DNA of 64,000 nucleotides from Candidatus Methanoperedenaceae archaeon (lineage in GTDB: Archaea; Halobacteriota; Methanosarcinia; Methanosarcinales; Methanoperedenaceae): positions 18,089 through 82,088 of the forward strand of contig CAVWCX010000037.1 in NCBI GenBank assembly GCA_963753595.1, given 5' to 3'. Position numbers and translations under genes: made by a program. A model generated the notes under the pieces. The model made no database searches. It had not been told where the DNA came from and worked only from the letters and a program-made list of their open reading frames with translations. This document shows, in pieces, positions 48,950 through 63,050 of this stretch (within the stretch, counting starts at the first letter, position 1; each line of letters starts with the position of its first letter).

Positions 48950-49325
48950 GAATATTTGTATTGCAATGAATACCTCAGTTGCACATCAACATCAGCCGTA
49001 CCCATAGTTGATTGAATAATAATTCCCTCACCCTTTCTCGCAGTCACTTTACGGCTGAAGGCTCTTACCAGCTTACTTTCAGTTATGAATTGAAAATCCC
49101 GTTTTTCAGGAAGTTGTCATACTGCTCCCTGCCTGACACCAGGTAAATATCAATATAATCAGTCGAGCTGATATCGATAGATACAGGCACATCAAAATCA
49201 AATGGATACGAAGGGTCGTATAAATACATGAATGTCAGGTATCCGTGATCCAATTTTATATTTTGGTCATGCTCAAGCCCCGCGAAAACCATTATTGCAT
49301 AACAGTTCTTCTTTTCACAATATAC
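48946..49325 (-). pseudogene. Degraded hypothetical gene whose 5' region is hit by the IS605-derived insert
   Basis: Coding-like frames ...DIYLVSGREQYDNFLKNG and ESKLVRAFSRKVTARKGEGIIIQ... separated by a frameshift near 49083. Confidence 0.4.
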
Positions 49326-49470
49326 TTTGCGCGGGGTCAAGGGGTAGAGATCAGGTATCTGCGATATTAATCGAGAAAAGCCCAATCAGTACGGTAGGAA
49401 CTATCGGAATTAACGCCCGTCAAGGATATCTCAGCGGAGTATTAATGCAGCGGGACGCTCCGCGGCTTTA

Positions 49471-51200
49471 GAGGCTGTCCGATAATTAACTGAAAAACTC
49501 TCCGATTTTTCCATAATTCCAAATTATAATCAAGCCCATTGCTTGCGAAATAATTTCAAAACATTTATATCATACAAATACAGTTTTTAAATAAATATGA
49601 CTTTCTATAAAGACCTCAAAGACCAGGAACTGCTCTTACCTCCAAACATTCGTGATATGATACCAAAAAATCACATCTGCCATCTGGTTGATAAAATAAT
49701 CCAGAATATGGATCTATCTGATATCGAAAAGGAATACGAAGGAGCAGGACACCCCGCATATCATCCAAAACTCATCCTCAAGCTTCTGATATTGGGTCAA
49801 ATAGATGGAGTACGTTCATCAAGGATAATAGCAAAAAATGCTAGAGAGAACGTGGTATACATTTACCTTGCAGGTCTTCTCCAACCTGATTTCAGGACGA
49901 TAAGCGACTTTCGGAAAAACAATCTTGAAATGGTCAAATCATCATTTCATGAAGTTGTAAAATTCGCAAAAGATCTTGGCATGGTATCTCTTGGTCACAT
50001 ATGCATTGATGGAACAAAAATAAAAGCCAATGCATCAAATCACAGTGCAGTAACAAAAGATGATTTTTTAAAATTGAAGGAACTCGTTGAAAGAGAACTG
50101 GAAGAAGGCATCAGAATAGACGAGGAAGAGGACAGGATCCATGGTGATAAGAATATCGATGAGCTGCCAGATAACATCTTTGACAAAACGATAGCGGAAA
50201 AATTGAAAGAGAAATATCAGTCAGGGAGCAAAGAACAAAAAGAAAAAATCAAGAAACAGGTTGATAAGATCGAAAAAGAAATCGAAAAATCAGAGAGTGC
50301 CATCAGTGCTACTGATCCTGAAAGCAGGTTCATGCCAAATAACAAGAAGGTCACTGAATATTCCTATAATCCTCAGATAACAGCGGATTCTTCTTTTGGG
50401 ATAATCATTTCCAACGATGTCACGTCAGAGGTAAGGGATGCAAATCAGCTTAAGCCTCAGATAATACAGGCAGAAGAGAATGTTGGAACCCTTCCGGAAG
50501 GTACGAAGGTGAGTGCTGATAATGGATATTCAAGCAGCAAGAATCTCAAATTCATGAAGAAAAAAAAGCTGGATGGCTATATCCCGGATGAAAAAACGGC
50601 ATCAAACCTGAACAAAAATGAAGGAAAACCAGAAAACCCATTCGGTAAAGAGAATTTCGATTATGACCCGATAGAAGATTGTTTCATTTGCCCCAATAAT
50701 CAGAAACTGACGTTCCGTTTTGAGTATGTGGATATTGCCAAAAACAGAAATGTGCGGATTTATAAAGGCACTCAGTGTAAGCAATGTCCTGATCGTAAAA
50801 AATGTTCAAAGAACTCTCGGGATGGAAAAGTGATCAAGAATTATGAGGGGATGGAAGAGGAAAGAAGGAAGATGGCTTCTAAATTGATGTCAAAAGAGGG
50901 AGCATTGACATATCAGACGAGGAAAAAGGTCGTGGAGTGCATCTTTGGTCATATCAAGAGGAATCTTGGGTTCAGGGAATTTCTGTTGAGAGGGATTAAT
51001 GGGGCGAAAATTGAGTTCAATCTTACCTGCATTGCTTCAAACCTGAGAAGAATGTGGAACTTTTTGAATGGATTTATTGAAGTAAGATGTTAAATTGGAG
51101 AAGAAGTATCGTTTTTTTTTGTTTGTCTGAAAAATTAGGCAATTATTGCTGAAACATTGCTTGAATAAACTGTATTTGATATCAAATGTCGGTCAACCTC
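49471..51200 (+). mobile_element. IS1182 family insertion sequence
   Basis: TIRs GAGGCTGTCCGATAATT / GAGGTTGACCGACATTT (13/17); CTTTA duplicated at 49466-49470 and 51201-51205. Confidence 0.9.
49597..51093 (+). CDS. IS1182 family transposase
   Basis: GHPAYHP, PDFRTISDFRK, IDGTKIKANAS, TDPESRFM, ADNGY, VECIFGHIK. Confidence 0.94.
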   Translation: MTFYKDLKDQELLLPPNIRDMIPKNHICHLVDKIIQNMDLSDIEKEYEGAGHPAYHPKLILKLLILGQIDGVRSSRIIAKNARENVVYIYLAGLLQPDFRTISDFRKNNLEMVKSSFHEVVKFAKDLGMVSLGHICIDGTKIKANASNHSAVTKDDFLKLKELVERELEEGIRIDEEEDRIHGDKNIDELPDNIFDKTIAEKLKEKYQSGSKEQKEKIKKQVDKIEKEIEKSESAISATDPESRFMPNNKKVTEYSYNPQITADSSFGIIISNDVTSEVRDANQLKPQIIQAEENVGTLPEGTKVSADNGYSSSKNLKFMKKKKLDGYIPDEKTASNLNKNEGKPENPFGKENFDYDPIEDCFICPNNQKLTFRFEYVDIAKNRNVRIYKGTQCKQCPDRKKCSKNSRDGKVIKNYEGMEEERRKMASKLMSKEGALTYQTRKKVVECIFGHIKRNLGFREFLLRGINGAKIEFNLTCIASNLRRMWNFLNGFIEVRC

Positions 51201-51259
51201 CTTTAGCCCGAAGCAGTTCACAAACGCATATCTATTTTGGTGATATTTATGTCTTGAAG

Positions 51260-54916: not shown

Positions 54917-56559
54917 TAATTCGACCTCATCTTACTTTTTGTTATTAAATAAGCTGTGAATGCAATACTTCCGATTATTCCGGAAATAATGAGAAATGAC
55001 ACTATCATAAATGTAATCATTTCATATCGACCTGCATTTATATATATTGTATCTATGTTATCGACTGTGGTTGATCCGGGGATTTCATTTTTTTGTACCG
55101 GGTTTGATTGCGCCTGCCTTACAGTCCCCCGGATATCCCGATAGGTTGCAGAAGCTTCAGGAAGATATACCGCATTGCCTTTCAATGAATACTTGAAATT
55201 TGCACTCTTTCCGGCATCCAAAAAACCCGACCATGTTGTTGAACCGCCCTCCAATGATAAACCGTCAGGTATTTTATCATCCACCGTAACAATTGCCGCC
55301 CTGTCTCCACTATTTATAATTTCCAGTTCCACATCTGTCAGGCCTTCGTTATTCAAAGCCTTCTTGACCAGGCGTATATAAGGCATATGATAGGTCATTT
55401 TAACTTTCTTTGATGTGCTCATCTCTTTGTCCCATTGCGCTGTGGCGCTTGTAAGCTGATAAACCCCTGGTTTCAGGAGATAGATATAATATGATACGTT
55501 TGCTGATTTCTTTGGCCCCAGTTCGACAATCCAATCCCTCTGGTTTTCTAATGTGTCTTCAGTTACATTATCATGGACGCGGACGAAGGTTCTGTTCGGT
55601 CCGGAATTATATACAAACAATTCAACAAGGACTTTTTCATCATCAGTTTCTTCCGGGACGCGTTTTATAATGGATATATAAGGAGCAACAGGTACTTCCC
55701 TGCTTACTGTGGATATGTAGGTATTATTTAGGTAATCGCGCACTTCTACCCTCGCATTAATGGTGAGCGTTGAATTAGGAGGCAGCAAATTTATTTGAGA
55801 TTTGAAGGATTTTGCACCATTAATATTAACTCCGGTAAAAATATCCGGCTTGAATGTTATTGGATTTTTGCTCTCAAGACCCAAACCCGCAATGTTAAGA
55901 GTTTCATCAGTCGTGATGTTTATTAATATGGAAATGTTTTCATTGGGAAAATATTCATCTTTATCAGTAATTATCTCTGCTTTGACCACTGGAGTCTTAT
56001 ATTTGAAAAACTCAATATCTATAAAACCAGTTTTATTTATGTCCCTAACAACTATTCGCAAGTTATCATAATTTTTTGAGCCATTTTTTGTGAAAACATC
56101 TGTATTAACTGTTTTTTTGCTTGATACTGTAAGATTTACTGAATCTTTACCAATGGCCTCAATTCCTATAGAATAAGCTTCAAATGAATATGTATCTCCC
56201 CATTTTAAGATCGTTCTGCCTGATGGTATCCAGATATCTTTATTTTCAAGCCGGCTAAAAGCGATCCATGACTCATCCCCGATTATCCCCAATAGAGTTA
56301 TTCCTGCATCATCATATTTTTTAAATTCATTTACTTGAAACTCTTTTGTTTCTATCAGTCCCCTGTCTTTATAAACAATTAATGTTGAGTTCGTATTATT
56401 CAAAGCAGTAACTTTCACATGGTAATTTTCAAAATCCAGAGATTCATCGATCTTAATAAAACCCGAGGATTTTGCGCTCCAGACTTTTTCGGTTGCGCCA
56501 AGAGAGGCAACAGGAAGAAAACTTATTATTATGAAACATATTACAATTTTTATGTTCAT
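54916..56559 (-). CDS. BatD/DUF11-like cell-surface protein
   Basis: Signal peptide, repeated V.L...NSG...V.D..P...Y.L...A.A Ig-like modules, C-terminal TM. Confidence 0.72.
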   Translation of the reverse strand: MNIKIVICFIIISFLPVASLGATEKVWSAKSSGFIKIDESLDFENYHVKVTALNNTNSTLIVYKDRGLIETKEFQVNEFKKYDDAGITLLGIIGDESWIAFSRLENKDIWIPSGRTILKWGDTYSFEAYSIGIEAIGKDSVNLTVSSKKTVNTDVFTKNGSKNYDNLRIVVRDINKTGFIDIEFFKYKTPVVKAEIITDKDEYFPNENISILINITTDETLNIAGLGLESKNPITFKPDIFTGVNINGAKSFKSQINLLPPNSTLTINARVEVRDYLNNTYISTVSREVPVAPYISIIKRVPEETDDEKVLVELFVYNSGPNRTFVRVHDNVTEDTLENQRDWIVELGPKKSANVSYYIYLLKPGVYQLTSATAQWDKEMSTSKKVKMTYHMPYIRLVKKALNNEGLTDVELEIINSGDRAAIVTVDDKIPDGLSLEGGSTTWSGFLDAGKSANFKYSLKGNAVYLPEASATYRDIRGTVRQAQSNPVQKNEIPGSTTVDNIDTIYINAGRYEMITFMIVSFLIISGIIGSIAFTAYLITKSKMRSN

Positions 56560-56602
56560 TATACTTTAAATTGAATTCAATTGGTTTAAACTTTTCTTTT
56601 AT

Positions 56603-57841
56603 TTAAATGTATATTATTTCTTTATTGGCAGGAGCAAATGATTTCACACCAAGTTCTTCATTGACCCAATGTGCGAATCCTTCAGTATTATCACCATGTA
56701 CCGCGATAACGGTTTCCGTACCCCTGTCGCAGAAGGTCTTTACAACCTCTTTTAATTGCGCATCCCCGCAATGTGCTGAAAAATCATAGAGCTCAAGCCT
56801 GCAATTAAGCCTCACCGTGCGTTTCCCATTTTCTATGTACCTTCTTTCAAGCGCTCTTCTGCCATTTGTGTCTTCTGCCTGGTAACCGGTAAGATGGATC
56901 TTGGATTTGGGATCGTTGCAAATCTCATCGATATAATATAAAACCGGTCCTCCGTTTAACATTCCAGCACTTGTCACGATTATAGAGGGTTCATTTATTA
57001 TTTCTTCCCTGTCATCCCGTTTTACGATATTTTCACTCGTGAATGCATTTTCAAGTTTCTTTATATCGGATACATATTCAGGCGACCGTTTCATTATGTT
57101 AAAGACATCGACTCCCATACCATCAACATATGCGCGAAGTTCGTGTTTTTTGAGTATCAGCATGATCTCCTGCGTTCTTCCTATGCCAAATGCCGGGATT
57201 ATTGCCCGCCCTCCGCTTTCAATTGTTTCCCTTATAGATGTGATGAACCGTTCCTCCAGGATTTTCCTGGGAGTGTGGTCCCTCCCGAAATATGTACTTT
57301 CAGTAAGAAGAATATCGCTATCAGGAAAATCTGTATCTGCGCCTTTCTGGAGTTCTGTCCTGATCGTGTTCAAATCCCCTGTATAAAACAGCGTCTGTTT
57401 ATCCTTTTCAAGATGCACCATCGAAGAACCGGGGATATGTCCTGCATCGTAAAAACATACAGAATATCCATTGCTATTGAATTCTTTCCCATATCCTATC
57501 GGCCTGGCCTTTCGTTCAAATTCCTGGATCTCTTCATGATAGTAAGGAATAACATGACCTTTTTTTGCCGCGATCTTCAGGGTATCCCTTGCCAGGAGCC
57601 CTGATAATTTTGCAGTCAGGGATGTGCAATATACCTCAGGTTCAAGGTCCATGATATTCGGGGCAAGCCCGCAATGGTCAAGATGCCCATGGGAAATTAT
57701 CATGGTTTTAGGACGAAGGCCATTTGAAGGATATGAGGGCGGATCTGTAGGTTTAATCCCGTAATCAAGAAGAAGCTCTTCATTTACAAGAATAGCAGAT
57801 CTTCCAACTTCTTTTGCCCCTCCAAGGAATCGTATGTTTAT
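56603..57841 (-). CDS. Beta-CASP ribonuclease (aCPSF2-type MBL hydrolase)
   Basis: FLGGAKEVGRS, SHGHLDHCG, AGHIPGS, TESTY, FGIGRTQE, FSAH; N-terminus extends to ATA 57841. Confidence 0.9.
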   Translation of the reverse strand: MNIRFLGGAKEVGRSAILVNEELLLDYGIKPTDPPSYPSNGLRPKTMIISHGHLDHCGLAPNIMDLEPEVYCTSLTAKLSGLLARDTLKIAAKKGHVIPYYHEEIQEFERKARPIGYGKEFNSNGYSVCFYDAGHIPGSSMVHLEKDKQTLFYTGDLNTIRTELQKGADTDFPDSDILLTESTYFGRDHTPRKILEERFITSIRETIESGGRAIIPAFGIGRTQEIMLILKKHELRAYVDGMGVDVFNIMKRSPEYVSDIKKLENAFTSENIVKRDDREEIINEPSIIVTSAGMLNGGPVLYYIDEICNDPKSKIHLTGYQAEDTNGRRALERRYIENGKRTVRLNCRLELYDFSAHCGDAQLKEVVKTFCDRGTETVIAVHGDNTEGFAHWVNEELGVKSFAPANKEIIYI

Positions 57842-57891
57842 GTTATCGCCTCAAGTCTATTTCGTAGATATTATTCTTGTTCTTTTAATAC

Positions 57892-59202
57892 TTTGCGCGG
57901 GGTCAAGGGGTAGAGATCGCCCAATGCCTTTAGGCTTGGGATGAAATGTACCCTCTGGAATAGATTACTTTCACCCCACTCTATCATAAGCGATATATAA
58001 TCTAAAAATAATGTCGATGCTGCATGAAAAAGACGTATCAATTCAGAATATACCCTAACAAGAATCATGAGGTTATTTTGAATAGAACGCTTGGAACTTG
58101 CAGGTATCTCTATAATAATGCTCTTGCAGAACGAAAGAAGCAAGCAGAGCTTAATCGGCTTAGAAAATCATTTGATGTATTCCCGTGGGGAAAACCTGAA
58201 TGGATCAACAAATACGATCAAATGCTTGATTTAACAGCTACAAAAACAGAATATCAAAAAGAAGTATATGGTCAAGTGCTTCAAGATGTTTTAAAAAGAG
58301 TGGATCGCAGTTTCAAGAATTTCTTTAATGGGTTCGGCTATCCCCGGTTTCAAGGAAGAAATAGATACAATAGTTTCACGTATCCCCAATCAGGTTTTTC
58401 AATCAAAGACGGAAAGCTTAACCTTTCAAAAATCGGAGCTATCAAGATCATCCTGCATAGACCGATTGAAGGCATAATCAAGACCTGTACCATCAAAAAG
58501 GATATTGACCAGTGGTATGTTACTTTTTCATGTGAAATCGAAGAGCCTATCCCGGTTGAGATCAAGACCAAAACAGGTATTGACGTGGGCTTAATCGACC
58601 TGATAACCCTGAGCAACGGGGAACAGGTCAAACCGCCAAAATTCCTGCGAGAATCAGAGAATAAGCTGACACAGGAACAGAAGCGGTTAAGCCGGAAAAA
58701 ACTCAGGTCAAAGAACAGGAATAAGCAGCGGGTGATAGTATCCAAAGCTCATCGAAAGATCAGGAATCAGAGAAAAGATTTTGCTCATAAACTGTCAAGA
58801 ACTCTTGTGGACTCCTATGACCGTATCGTGTTTGAAGATTTGCAGATAAAAAACATGGTGCAAAACCATCATTTTGCTAAATCCATAAACGATGCTGGAT
58901 GGTATCAGTTAATGCAATTCACGAAATCCAAGGCAGAATGTGCCGGGAAAATAGTTGAATTCGTTAATCCCGCAGGAACATCTCAGACCTGTATTTGCGG
59001 GTTCAGTGTCCCGAGAGACCTGTCAGTGAGGATACATAGTTGTCCTTCCTGTGGTCTTGTCATGGGAAGAGATCAGGTATCTGCAATATTAATCGAGAAT
59101 AGATGTACGGTAGGAACTACCGGAATTAACGCCCGTCAAGGATATCTCAGCGGAGTATCAATGCAGCGGGACGCTTTGCGGCTTTAACCCGGAGCAGTTC
59201 AC
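57892..59202 (+). mobile_element. IS200/IS605 family (IS1341-type, TnpB only) element
   Basis: LE hairpin CCCAA-T-GCC-TTTA-GGC-TTGGG (57920-57940), RE hairpin 59174-59194, terminal TCAC, no tnpA. Confidence 0.9.
58024..59187 (+). CDS. tnpB: RNA-guided endonuclease TnpB
   Basis: TYQFRIYP HTH, GYPRF, RuvC GIDVG / VFEDL / RDQVSA, Zn ribbon CICG..CPSCG. Confidence 0.95.
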   Translation: MKKTYQFRIYPNKNHEVILNRTLGTCRYLYNNALAERKKQAELNRLRKSFDVFPWGKPEWINKYDQMLDLTATKTEYQKEVYGQVLQDVLKRVDRSFKNFFNGFGYPRFQGRNRYNSFTYPQSGFSIKDGKLNLSKIGAIKIILHRPIEGIIKTCTIKKDIDQWYVTFSCEIEEPIPVEIKTKTGIDVGLIDLITLSNGEQVKPPKFLRESENKLTQEQKRLSRKKLRSKNRNKQRVIVSKAHRKIRNQRKDFAHKLSRTLVDSYDRIVFEDLQIKNMVQNHHFAKSINDAGWYQLMQFTKSKAECAGKIVEFVNPAGTSQTCICGFSVPRDLSVRIHSCPSCGLVMGRDQVSAILIENRCTVGTTGINARQGYLSGVSMQRDALRL

Positions 59203-59643
59203 TTTCCCGTGATTATCTATCTCCCCATTCCTTATACGGGTGCTGGATATCGGTAAACCATCATCGGCAAGAACATACTCAACAAGGACGATCTTTAACG
59301 GTTCCATGTTTTTTTCAGTGCGTATCCTGTTTATCTTAAGTCCGATAGGATGCGTTTCAGGAGATACTACAAGAAAATCAAAATCCTCATTTATGGTCGG
59401 GCCATAGGGGTCTTCAAGCTTTACGATCCTGGGGATAACGCTATTGTCATTGATAAATTTCATTACTTCATTATAGCGAGATCGATAATCATTGACTTCA
59501 TGGTTCTTGTTTTTCGCCATTTTATCTGATGTCAGCCCTATCAACAGTTCTCCATCCCTTCCCAGTTCAACGGCTTTTATCAAGAGTGCCTTATGCCCGT
59601 CATGCAAGGGGTCAAAAGTTCCTCCAACTGCTACTCGCGGCAT
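59158..59643 (-). CDS. coaD: Phosphopantetheine adenylyltransferase (C-terminus replaced by IS sequence)
   Basis: VGGTFDPLHDGH, DPYGP, VVSPET, ISSTRI..GEID. Confidence 0.92.
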   Translation of the reverse strand: MPRVAVGGTFDPLHDGHKALLIKAVELGRDGELLIGLTSDKMAKNKNHEVNDYRSRYNEVMKFINDNSVIPRIVKLEDPYGPTINEDFDFLVVSPETHPIGLKINRIRTEKNMEPLKIVLVEYVLADDGLPISSTRIRNGEIDNHGKVNCSGLKPQSVPLH

Positions 59644-59711
59644 ATACTCAGGATTGTAAAATCAAACGATAAGAGTATCTTTTAATATCTCTTAGGGGAT
59701 TTTAGGGGGAT

Positions 59712-61220
59712 ATGACAGAAGAGACAATACACTGGGCAGATGTTATAGCGCAAAATGTACTTTCGCGTGGAAAAAAGCATACTGTGGCCTCAGGAATTAC
59801 TCCATCAGGCCCCATTCATTTAGGGAACATGAGAGAAGTCGTGACTGCGGATGCGGTTTATAAAGCGCTTGTAGATAAGGGCGCAGATGTACGCCTGATC
59901 TATATCGCAGACACTTTTGATCCACTTCGTAAAGTATATCCATTCCTTTCAAAGGATTACGAAGCCCATGTGGGAAAACCGCTTTCTGAAATCCCGTGTC
60001 CATGCGGGAACCACAAGAGCTATGCAGAGCATTTCCTTTTACCCTTTATTGAAGCCCTGCACACTCTTGGCATAAAACCTGAGGTTTACAGGGCGGATGT
60101 GCTTTATAAAGAGGGAAAATACGTTGAATCCATTAAAAAAGCCCTGATTAACAGGGATGCCATCGCGCGGATATTGTCCGAAGTTGCAGGCCGCGAAATT
60201 GAATCTGATTGGAGCCCATATAATACAATATGCAAAGAATGCGGGCGGTTGAGTACTACGAAAGTCACAGGTTTCGATGCCCAGAAAGAAACTATTGATT
60301 ATGTTTGCAAATGTGGCTCGGCAGGGACAGTTTCCATGAAAGGCACAGGAAAACTCAACTGGCGCGTTGACTGGCCTTCGAGGTGGCCGCTATTTGGTAC
60401 AACGGTTGAACCTTTTGGCAAAGATCATGCCACCGCGGGAGGTTCTTACGATACAGGAAAACGTATCGCCCGCGAAATATATGATTATGAACCTCCTTAT
60501 CCGATAGTGTATGAGTGGATAATGCTAAAAGGAAAAGGTGCAATGCATTCATCTACCGGTCTTGCGATATCTATAAACGATATGCTTGAAATCGTGCCTC
60601 CGGAAGTCCTTCGCTATCTTATTATCAGGCAAAAACCCGAGAAACATATTGAATTTGACCCCGGCCTTGCTTTTCTTAATCTTATTGATGAGTATGACCA
60701 GGTGGAAGGCGATAAAAGGGCTTACCAGCTTTCAAGCACTCAAGGGACAAAACCCTCAAAAATCCCCTTCAGGCACATGGTTACCGCTGTGCAGATCGCT
60801 GATGACAGGGGGTTTGAGTATCTTCTTACTGTTTTGAAACGAACCGATTATGATACATCTGATGTAGAAGCTATCAGACAAAGAGCAAATAATGCAAGGA
60901 ACTGGCTTGCTAAATATGCTCCCCTGTTTGTTAAGTTCAAAGTCCAGGAGAATATTCCACCGCAGGTAAAAAGTTTCTCAAAAGAACAGAAACTTGCGCT
61001 TACGATCCTTGCAGATCAAATGGAGCATGGGATGTCAGGCCAGGAGATCCATGATAATTTATATAAGGTTGCCGAGCAAACCGGTCTTGACGGAAAACAG
61101 GTGTTTGAGACTGTATATCTGGCGCTTCTCGGTCTGAAATCCGGGCCACGGGCAGGGCATTTCCTTGCGTCCCTGGAGAAGGATTTCGTTGTAAAGAGGT
61201 TTAAAGAGGCAAGTTTGTAA
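59712..61220 (+). CDS. lysS: Class I lysyl-tRNA synthetase
   Basis: [36 protein letters not shown]. Confidence 0.96.
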
Positions 61221-61341
61221 AAAACATAATTATAATACTAATTATTTATATGTTCGTATTTTTACGAACCTAATCTTTAAGTACTATGTAGGATTATTAT
61301 CTCCGAGGATAGTATTATTGTAATAACAATTTACTCATAAT

Positions 61342-63050
61342 ATGACAGAAGGAAGAAAAATTTCACGGCCAATAAATTGGATACTAATATTTGTTGTACT
61401 TTTATATTTTGTCAGTATTGCCGCCGCCTATGAAGGCCTCGAATGGGAAGACGGAATATCCGGGACCTTAAAACGCAATGAAGTAATCTCATTTATGGAC
61501 TATTCGGTAAAGGTTGTGGCTTTTCCTGCTCCTGTAGAATCAGAAAAGTATCAAGATAGACCAATTGAACCAGTCGAACCTTTTGTGGGATTGAATATTT
61601 CCAATAATGGTAGTTTTTTAAATACAACGTTTCTGGGACTTGGAGATTCATTTATCACTGCTGACGGGGAATTTAAGGTTGAAGTCGAAAAACTGCCTTC
61701 AGGTTTATCCAAAGACTGGTTATATGAAAGTTACGCTCCATCGACTACATTAACATTAAGCCAGAGAGGAAAACCACAATTAGAAATAACAATAGAAACT
61801 GATGATGAATATTTATCTACCCCAAATACTGAAGTCAATGCAAAGATCACATTGAAAAATACTGGAACAGCCGCTATCAATAATGTTGATCTGGACATTG
61901 GTACGGAACTTCCCTTATTAAGAGGTTATTTAAAATATCATTATGAGACTCTCACGAAAGGAGGACGAGATCAGTGAGATCGTTGCTTTTTCCACACCAG
62001 TTGTTTCGAATGTAAAAAAATTTAATATATTCGTGAACTCCAGCGGATTTGATGTCAAGGATAATTCATATAAAGCGACACAATTAAAAACGATCTTGAT
62101 CGCCCCATCACCCCAGCAAGCTCCTGTCCTGATGAAAAATACGAATCCAAAGGCTTATTTAAAAGATGTGATCATGGTATCCATTTCTTTTAAGAACAAT
62201 GCTGATTATGAACTCAAAAACGTCAGTATCGTGGATTCTGTTCCAAAAGGATTCAAACAATTGAGCAATAATACACTCCGCTGGGTTGTAAATGTGGGTC
62301 CAAATCAAGAATGGTATTTCCGCTATCTTTTAAAACCAACGGAAGCTGGGAGTGTTTTATTCCCCTCCACTACCGCAGAATTTAAGATAAAGAATGAATT
62401 CTACATGATCCAGTCAAATAGACCTGAGACTGTAATATATGGGCCAAGTATTGAACTGAGTAAACAGGCAGATAAATTAGCAGATCAATCCTGGTGATGA
62501 AGTGACTGTTACAGTCATCGCTAAAAATAGCGGAACCACCCCTACAATGGTCTCTATCAAAGACGATTTACCGCCAGATACAACCCTATTAAGCGGTACT
62601 ACAACCCATGAAGAGTATCTTGAAGCAGGAAAGGAATCAAGTTTCAGTTATACTCTCAGTTCAAATTCCGGAGAACCTATTAGACTGCCTCCGGCTAAAG
62701 CAGAATTTTTTGAATTAGGCTCCACAGGTACAAAATTAACCAAGATGAGCAAAGAGCTCCTTCTAAGCATTAGCCCGCCGCCAACCCCTGAGCCAACTCC
62801 AGAACCCATCCCTGAGGGTTTCGAAATACCAGTTGATCCTATGGAGGGAGACATTCCCCAGGAAGTACCTGAATATGCGGTAAATACTATCCAGGAACCT
62901 GAACCACCCATGATTGCAGAATCTACACCACCTTTTGTTGATGCAAATTCTGTTTTGAACCTCCTTATGGGGTGCGATAATATTAACGATACTGTTCAAC
63001 AAATAAATATGGCAACTGATGTTTGCACCTTTGTAGGAAATAATCCTTAA
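61342..63050 (+). pseudogene. BatD/DUF11-like surface protein split into three ORFs by two +1 frameshifts
   Basis: ORFs 61342-61977, 61943-62497 and 62502-63050 join if single bases near 61960 and 62481 are removed; possibly assembly error. Confidence 0.7.

Follow-up and report, generated by a model that had tools for sequence, protein, structure and literature searches.

The coaD gene of a Candidatus Methanoperedens genome carries, close to its 3' end, a 1,311-bp mobile element that encodes TnpB. The window, as the whole 64,000-nt stretch under study is called here, corresponds to contig positions 18089-82088 in a 2.9-Mb assembly (37 contigs, 92% complete). The arrangement is very likely the outcome of an ordinary insertion, in which a non-autonomous, tnpB-only insertion sequence (IS) of the IS200/IS605 family (IS1341-like) entered the variable C-terminal tail of the single-copy gene for pantetheine-phosphate adenylyltransferase (PPAT) and to which the published guide logic of TnpB would apply. 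The features that define the insertion are the following:

57892-59202, plus strand: tnpB-only IS200/IS605-family element (IS1341-like), 1,311 bp, without target-site duplication, delimited by copy alignments, a junction probe and IS-free alleles
57888-57891, plus strand: ATAC, immediately upstream of the left end and predicted to be the transposon-adjacent motif (TAM), as deduced from the flanks of subfamily copies
59158-59643, minus strand: coaD (archaeal PPAT) as now encoded, 161 residues, from its open reading frame (ORF) and matches to PF01467 and NF001985
57871-57891, minus strand: severed original end of coaD, GTA TTA AAA GAA CAA GAA TAA (VLKEQE-stop); IS-free alleles run on ...GGGAAA/GTATTAA... 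and protein P0009 ends VLKERE

The right boundary (59202/59203) is given by the point at which related copies part: the window copy, L003 and L006/L010 share the end ...GGAGCAGTTCAC and diverge beyond it. Among right ends taken from loci of other Methanoperedens genomes, 24 distinct ones finish as ...GGAGCAGTTCAC and one (L108) differs. When 49 genomes of the genus were searched with a 240-nt probe that covers the right junction (59083-59322), only the genome of the window matched across it. In the others the match was confined to one half of the probe, that of the element or that of coaD, and in IS-free species the homology to coaD begins at probe position 118-119 or later (window 59200-59201). 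On the left side, the identical start TTTGCGCGGGGTCAAGG follows unrelated flanks. The window copy and seven others of its subfamily start TTTG(C/T)GCGG(G)GTCAAGG, and their flanks end in ATAC in seven of the eight cases and in TTAC in the remaining one. The left boundary is also set by the IS-free alleles, which read ...CACGGGAAA/GTATTAA... across the site without a break. TTT is found at both 57892-57894 and 59203-59205; the cut could thus be shifted 3 nt to the right with the rejoined sequence unchanged. The IS-free alleles reveal no target duplication beyond the shared TTT or AC, which is possibly due to chance, and there are no terminal inverted repeats. Only 132 nt separate the left end from the start of tnpB, too few to accommodate a tnpA gene.

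In other subfamilies the left end opens with GT(T)GGGGTCAAGG and is preceded by T/A-rich motifs (TTAGAC or TTTATA, for example), so that their TAM may differ from ATAC. A separate observation concerns the right flanks of the window subfamily, of which three out of five independent ones start TTTCC (window, L047 = L078, and L049; not L048 or L092), the left end itself starting TTTGC. The shared start could reflect chance or a target preference that extends beyond the 4-nt motif.

The interrupted ORF matches the PPAT profile NF001985 with 190.6 bits (cut-off 104), PF01467 covers its residues 6-139, and the solved archaeal homologue 3do8 (148 residues) matches residues 3-147 (E = 2.5e-37). Its translation includes the PPAT motifs GGTFDPLHDGH (of the N-terminal GxFxxxHxGH type) and ISSTRIR, in keeping with a cytidylyltransferase-like fold, and it was the single PPAT match in a search of the whole genome. 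The final 45 nt of the ORF (59158-59202) lie inside the element. As a result the product now ends ...GEIDNHGKVNCSGLKPQSVPLH-stop, the six-residue tail VLKEQE having been swapped for 14 residues read from the element, VNCSGLKPQSVPLH-stop. A preliminary description of this DNA had proposed a precise insertion at 57892-59202 near the 3' end of coaD, the removal of which would restore the frame and the tail VLKEQE, and a present-day protein that ends in IS-derived residues. Both the boundaries and the two consequences for coaD are borne out by the comparisons given above and below.

Six IS-free alleles possess the exact junction (L015, L115, L116, L124, L125 and L128). In the sister species L015 the sequence reads ...GAGATAGATAATCACGGGAAA/GTATTAAGAG... 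without interruption. L124, a metagenome contig, is 96.9% identical to the window across the 1,068 nt upstream of the junction, and downstream of it corresponds to window positions 57891-57820 apart from two mismatches and one extra tandem copy of TATTAAAAGA. This 10-nt repeat is polymorphic, with one copy in the window (57881-57890) and two in L124 (approximately 1072-1091), and the extra copy shifts the frame, such that the coaD tail is VLKEQE-stop in the window sequence and VLKDIKRTRIISTK-stop in L124. Sequencing runs were consulted in the form of Logan contigs, which cannot prove transcription and from which depth, strand and RNA ends are not readable. In one such contig, from run X2, the element is absent and positions 57853 and 59201 are linked through 87 other letters.

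Since the element is a multi-copy repeat and the host sequence a metagenome-assembled genome (MAG), it might be argued that a repeat was misplaced into coaD during assembly. The probability of such an artefact is negligible, as the fusion protein recurs on two other contigs from a different, 94%-identical strain, a contig of run X7 spans the left junction, and the junction is base-exact when set against the IS-free alleles.

The insertion begins where the solved PPAT fold (3do8) ends. Among 19 coaD loci of the same genus, 18 have HG[KR]VL at this point and one has IL, followed by 0-14 mostly basic residues. The preliminary description had expected relatives to end in approximately GKVLKEQE, and this agrees with what was found, one example being P0009 with GKVLKERE. 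Because only the variable tail beyond the solved fold has been removed, the insertion is probably near neutral for coenzyme A (CoA) synthesis, and this would explain how it is tolerated in a gene that is likely to be essential. From the single-copy status of the gene and the position of the tail outside the fold, we infer that PPAT activity is kept with the IS-derived tail in place.

The coding and RNA-level features of the element are:

58024-59187, plus strand: tnpB, 387 residues, intact, with RuvC residues D187, E271 and D350, from its ORF, domains and a structure alignment
57899-57958, plus strand: left-end structured region with an inner hairpin, CCCAATGCC-TTTA-GGCTTGGG, at 57920-57940, from a by-eye reading of aligned copies
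59053-59202, plus strand: predicted omegaRNA scaffold and right end with four conserved helices, from a 25-sequence alignment
59203-59222, plus strand: predicted guide template, i.e. the right flank (16-20 nt), according to the published TnpB rule

TnpB has the domains HTH_OrfB (PF12323), OrfB_IS605 (PF01385) and the Cas12f1-like TNB domain (PF07282), each above its cut-off, and scores 313.3 bits against NF040570 (guided_TnpB, cut-off 100). It aligns over residues 3-378 with TnpB of ISDra2 (PDB 8bf8/8exa; E = 1.9e-50). Counted off the printed alignment, D187, E271 and D350 stand opposite the catalytic residues D191, E278 and D361 of ISDra2, so that the RuvC D-E-D triad is retained, as had been described.

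The 3' end of the element is predicted to fold into a conserved, covarying structure of the omegaRNA type. The structure alignment (A1), comprising the final 170 nt of 25 distinct copies, was compared with 500 shuffles and with slid registers. Its consensus has four helices and 31 pairs, 13 of which display compensatory changes. Paired cells amount to 97.3%, compared to 85.1% in the shuffles, none of the 500 reached as high a value and no slid register came close; the covariation score is 0.360 against 0.146 in the shuffles. Because part of the structured region is coding, protein constraints have to be considered, and the covariation exceeds them. The last helix of the scaffold is the terminal hairpin GCTTTGCGGC-TTTA-ACCCGGAGC, which is followed by AGTTCAC, and compensatory changes affect seven of its nine pairs. 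The window copy retains every helix of the consensus. At the left end the inner hairpin is nested, in the family consensus, within a longer stem (CAAGGGGTA...TACCCCTTG), and by eye it varies between subfamilies yet stays self-complementary, e.g. CTGCGCCCT-TCG-AGGGCGCAG.

A search of Rfam at E <= 1 returned no omegaRNA family in 55000-62000, the sole match being a chance-level small RNA elsewhere (E = 0.38). Folding of 59033-59222 as a single sequence gave an uninformative z = -1.03, and the alignment-based fold is relied on here. In run X15, an RNA library from a bioreactor, word depth along a related copy is roughly tenfold higher in the contig that covers its final 490 nt (window 58717-59202) than in the one that covers its initial 740 nt (348 vs 34). 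Such a contrast is expected of an abundant 3' omegaRNA, but contig depth is a poor measure and was not used as evidence.

By the published rule, the guide of the element would be the right flank, which is antisense to the coaD codons for GEIDNHGK. A 16-nt guide has one exact match in the genome, namely the occupied site itself, and five near matches with one or two mismatches, all without ATAC. Of 113 coaD-bearing loci, 6 match the right flank perfectly over 20 nt and continue with GTAT, the complement of ATAC. It had been claimed beforehand that IS-free coaD copies carry both the motif and the guide target, and these six loci do so. The related claim, that the guide would be directed at the empty allele, is a reasonable application of the published TnpB rule and is not new. 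The proposed course of events is as follows. A transcript of the element would give rise to an omegaRNA with the right flank, from 59203 to approximately 59222, as its guide. TnpB with this guide would then cut coaD copies that read ATAC plus flank, whether these are donor joints, IS-free copies of the chromosome or incoming IS-free alleles, and repair from an IS-bearing copy would keep or spread the element. The occupied site would be protected because the guide match there is preceded by TCAC rather than ATAC. Any TnpB element that enters a gene yields an arrangement of this kind, and the logic of retention and drive is already in print.

Several known systems provide a context for the element. 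IS608 of Helicobacter pylori, the model IS200/IS605 element, inserts 3' of TTAC without target duplication, has subterminal hairpins at both ends and carries tnpA. The window element is similar in that it (or its relatives) lies 3' of ATAC or TTAC, has no duplication, bears hairpins at both ends and finishes at the right in the related tetranucleotide TCAC; it differs in that tnpA is carried by IS608 only. The TAM of ISDra2 is TTGAT, unlike the ATAC predicted here. ISDra2 (Deinococcus radiodurans; PDB 8bf8, 8ex9, 8exa, 8h1j) resembles the window element in the full-length alignment of TnpB with its D-E-D residues, in an omegaRNA-type structure that extends over the 3' end of tnpB as well as the right end, and in taking the guide from the right flank, as predicted here. 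On the other hand, the first zinc-finger pair of the window TnpB is C-I-C and not CxxC, the window element is without tnpA, and its host is an archaeon.

For bacterial IS605-family elements, the accessible text of Meers et al. (2023 preprint, 10.1101/2023.03.14.532601) describes how excision by TnpA leaves a scarless donor joint (TAM plus right flank), which is cut by TnpB with its omegaRNA, and how recombination with a sister copy restores the element. The Geobacillus stearothermophilus elements of that study share the donor-joint logic, and there too the IS-free sites of related strains define the donor joints. In contrast to the window element, which is known from sequence and is without an intact TnpA, excision by TnpA, cleavage and retention were measured in that case. 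TnpB activity has also been described as a drive among multicopy plasmids, and drives are said to need polyploid settings (Mears et al., 2025 preprint, PMC11870625, in the portion of text available). The likeness is that a guide borne by an IS targets IS-free copies of the same replicon, as the preliminary description proposed for a polyploid host; the difference is that those replicons are bacterial plasmids, and the chromosomal case in a polyploid archaeon is a proposal. Regarding the ploidy of Methanoperedens, a literature search found no statement in the text accessible to it, and the sole occurrence of 'polyploid' in the plasmid paper was in the title of a reference. TnpB genes are present in Methanoperedens chromosomes and in all associated extrachromosomal elements, according to the accessible part of a preprint on the same genus (10.1101/2023.08.02.551345), which deals with TnpB phylogeny and CRISPR-adjacent TnpB and, in that part, makes no mention of coaD. 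More generally, the literature search, which took in the accessible text of the papers and not supplements such as the TnpB trees of the Methanoperedens extrachromosomal element preprint (Fig. S21), found nothing on coaD or this insertion.

The sequence 57871-59222 has 13 BLAST places in the genome. Besides the window copy, four others are nearly complete (85-87% identity), a fifth is 70% identical, and several more are derivatives with deletions. The element is thus no chance resemblance. Because the five other full-length copies all keep a tnpB frame without stops, the family looks to be alive in this genome. TnpA genes of full length occur commonly across the genus. A cognate autonomous partner was not found among 10 full-length TnpA loci of the genus; a similar left end was present at one of the ten (L209, G057), but the tnpB there is only 29% identical.

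A number of observations weigh against the reading of an insertion with a functioning guide system. The assembly (92% complete) has no intact Y1 TnpA, only three partial PF01797 hits. One of these extends over model positions 21-121 and contains two TAA stops, the other two cover 31-120 and 54-121, and none adjoins the ends of this family; excision and the formation of donor joints may therefore not occur in this cell. The missing TnpA does fit the tnpB-only subgroup rather than an autonomous IS605. The terminal hairpin of the window copy (59177-59189) deviates from the family consensus in that CC has become TT and, at the pair that closes the loop, G has become A. The C-to-T changes still allow G-U pairs in RNA, while the hairpin would be weaker as DNA. 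These hairpin changes also turn the TnpB C-terminus from APWL/APRL into ALRL, and in the fusion tail of coaD they replace R by Q. The RNA-library contigs of the bioreactor run X15 cover related copies at 90-95% identity and not the window copy, and ATAC has been read as the TAM from flanks only. There is no empty coaD allele within this assembly, and the largest share of sampled words in any sequencing run was 0.33, which places empty sites within the population beyond reach. Finally, the Leu that follows Val in 18 of the 19 genus loci is Asn in the window coaD, and this replacement may carry a small cost to PPAT.

A rival reading is that the element is an inert passenger, a stranded copy without a transposase that neither excises nor drives, for which the flank match is a geometric by-product and neutrality accounts for persistence. 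This possibility deserves serious consideration, although we do not think it the probable one. In its favour are the presence of only partial TnpA remnants in the genome, the three changes in the right-end hairpin of this copy and the lack of an empty allele in the assembly. Yet tnpB is intact here and in five other copies, which argues for selection on the nuclease, and the omegaRNA-type structure has been maintained, with G-U wobbles. Moreover, the full-length TnpA genes of the genus could arrive on mobile elements, and TnpA is not needed for TnpB to act on copies that lack the IS, as reported for plasmids (PMC11870625).

The coaD site is also occupied in a second strain. Protein P0001, encoded on two short contigs of another, 94%-identical strain, has the same fusion tail with one Q-to-R change, which corresponds to the consensus right end. 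It differs from the window PPAT at 9 of 148 residues. The IS-free protein P0002 has four differences from the window PPAT and five from P0001, and so lies on the path between the two. A contig of run X7 passes from the neighbouring beta-CASP gene into the left end of the element at approximately 93-95% identity. Possible histories for the P0001/P0002 pattern are an old insertion that was lost once, two independent insertions, copying from strain to strain, and recombination within coaD. Separately, it was observed that the coaD tail of the window resembles that of L124 while the body of the gene is closest to P0002; a recombination breakpoint was considered and then dropped.

It could be that the site was occupied recurrently, or by horizontal, guide-directed copying between strains, instead of by one old insertion. 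The position of P0002 between two occupied proteins (9, 4 and 5 differences) and the X7 contig are compatible with this, as is the conservation of the target that encodes GEIDNHGK, which is identical in six IS-free alleles, including those of other species. We nevertheless regard it as unlikely, given that it rests on three short proteins, that a single early insertion with later precise loss in the lineage of P0002, or normal recombination within coaD, fits equally well, and that the junction was found in none of the 48 other species genomes. A stronger form of the idea, in which the coaD site is a natural arena for RNA-guided homing in an uncultured archaeon, and TnpB cleavage and recombination, not a single inheritance, carried the element into IS-free alleles of other chromosome copies or other strains, is decidedly doubtful. 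It is suggested by the occupation of the target in at least two diverged coaD lineages with an IS-free allele between them, and by the identity of the target across several species. The ordinary insertion of a tnpB-only element remains the preferred reading.

The gene order around coaD was affected by the insertion. A class I lysyl-tRNA synthetase gene lies on one side of coaD, and on the other is:

56603-57841, minus strand: beta-CASP/RMMBL ribonuclease gene, from domain and profile matches

This gene was once situated about 30 nt downstream of the coaD stop codon, and the element has pushed it 1.3 kb further away. The two genes adjoin in the IS-free L015 and L124, in line with the earlier proposal that the insert parts them. 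It may be asked whether the element has been co-opted as a regulator of coaD or of the beta-CASP gene, acting either through its RNA, which is antisense to the present 3' end of coaD, or through a transcript that runs outward. Complementarity to the coaD mRNA does exist, both for the guide and for the final 45 nt of the scaffold, but this is a matter of geometry only, as is the displacement of an operon partner by 1.3 kb. Such a role is nonetheless highly improbable. The arrangement is not conserved (0/48 other species genomes), and a scan for promoters and terminators of the bacterial type found 2 and 0 sites, compared to 4.0 and 1.5 in shuffles, archaeal promoters being outside the coverage of that scan.

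The start of the beta-CASP gene is itself unusual. Between the upstream in-frame stop and the Met at 57703 there is no ATG, GTG or TTG, and the conserved N-terminus INIRFLGGAKEVGRS..., which is required for the metallo-beta-lactamase fold, precedes this Met. A GAGG motif occurs 7 nt upstream of an ATA codon (57841-57839, minus strand; both within 57839-57853), and the sister species L015 has ATT in this position. The sequence suggests that the gene starts at AUA or AUU.

Elsewhere in the window (49322-51221) is a miniature copy of the element, in which the left end is fused to approximately the last 130 nt. Its right-end hairpin breaks off behind the TTTA loop, and the remainder, CCCGAAGCAGTTCAC, is found at 51207-51221. 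Identical foreign sequence is located at the same point of the hairpin in L002 (C7) and L004 (C10), and a related one in L005 (C36). It therefore seems that another element inserts repeatedly into the loop of the right-end hairpin. Relatives of TnpB at 61-77% identity, with the same architecture of left and right ends, were found in L056 and L077 (contig titled Candidatus Ratteibacteria MAG) and in L074 (a Nitrosotalea MAG), on contigs binned with a candidate phylum of bacteria and with a thaumarchaeon; this may be due to mis-binning or to horizontal transfer.

The locus reveals no new mechanism, the logic of retention and drive having been published before. What it offers is an archaeal TnpB element whose occupied and empty sites occur in nature as a clean pair. 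Environmental genomes directly provide the TAM, the guide and the target, the last of which is part of a conserved motif in a gene that is probably essential. It also shows how a gene of an essential pathway tolerates an insertion that replaces only a disordered tail. The coaD site is thus a convenient test case for whether archaeal tnpB-only elements are active RNA-guided nucleases, and for whether TnpB biases the inheritance of such elements in organisms that may hold many copies of their chromosome.

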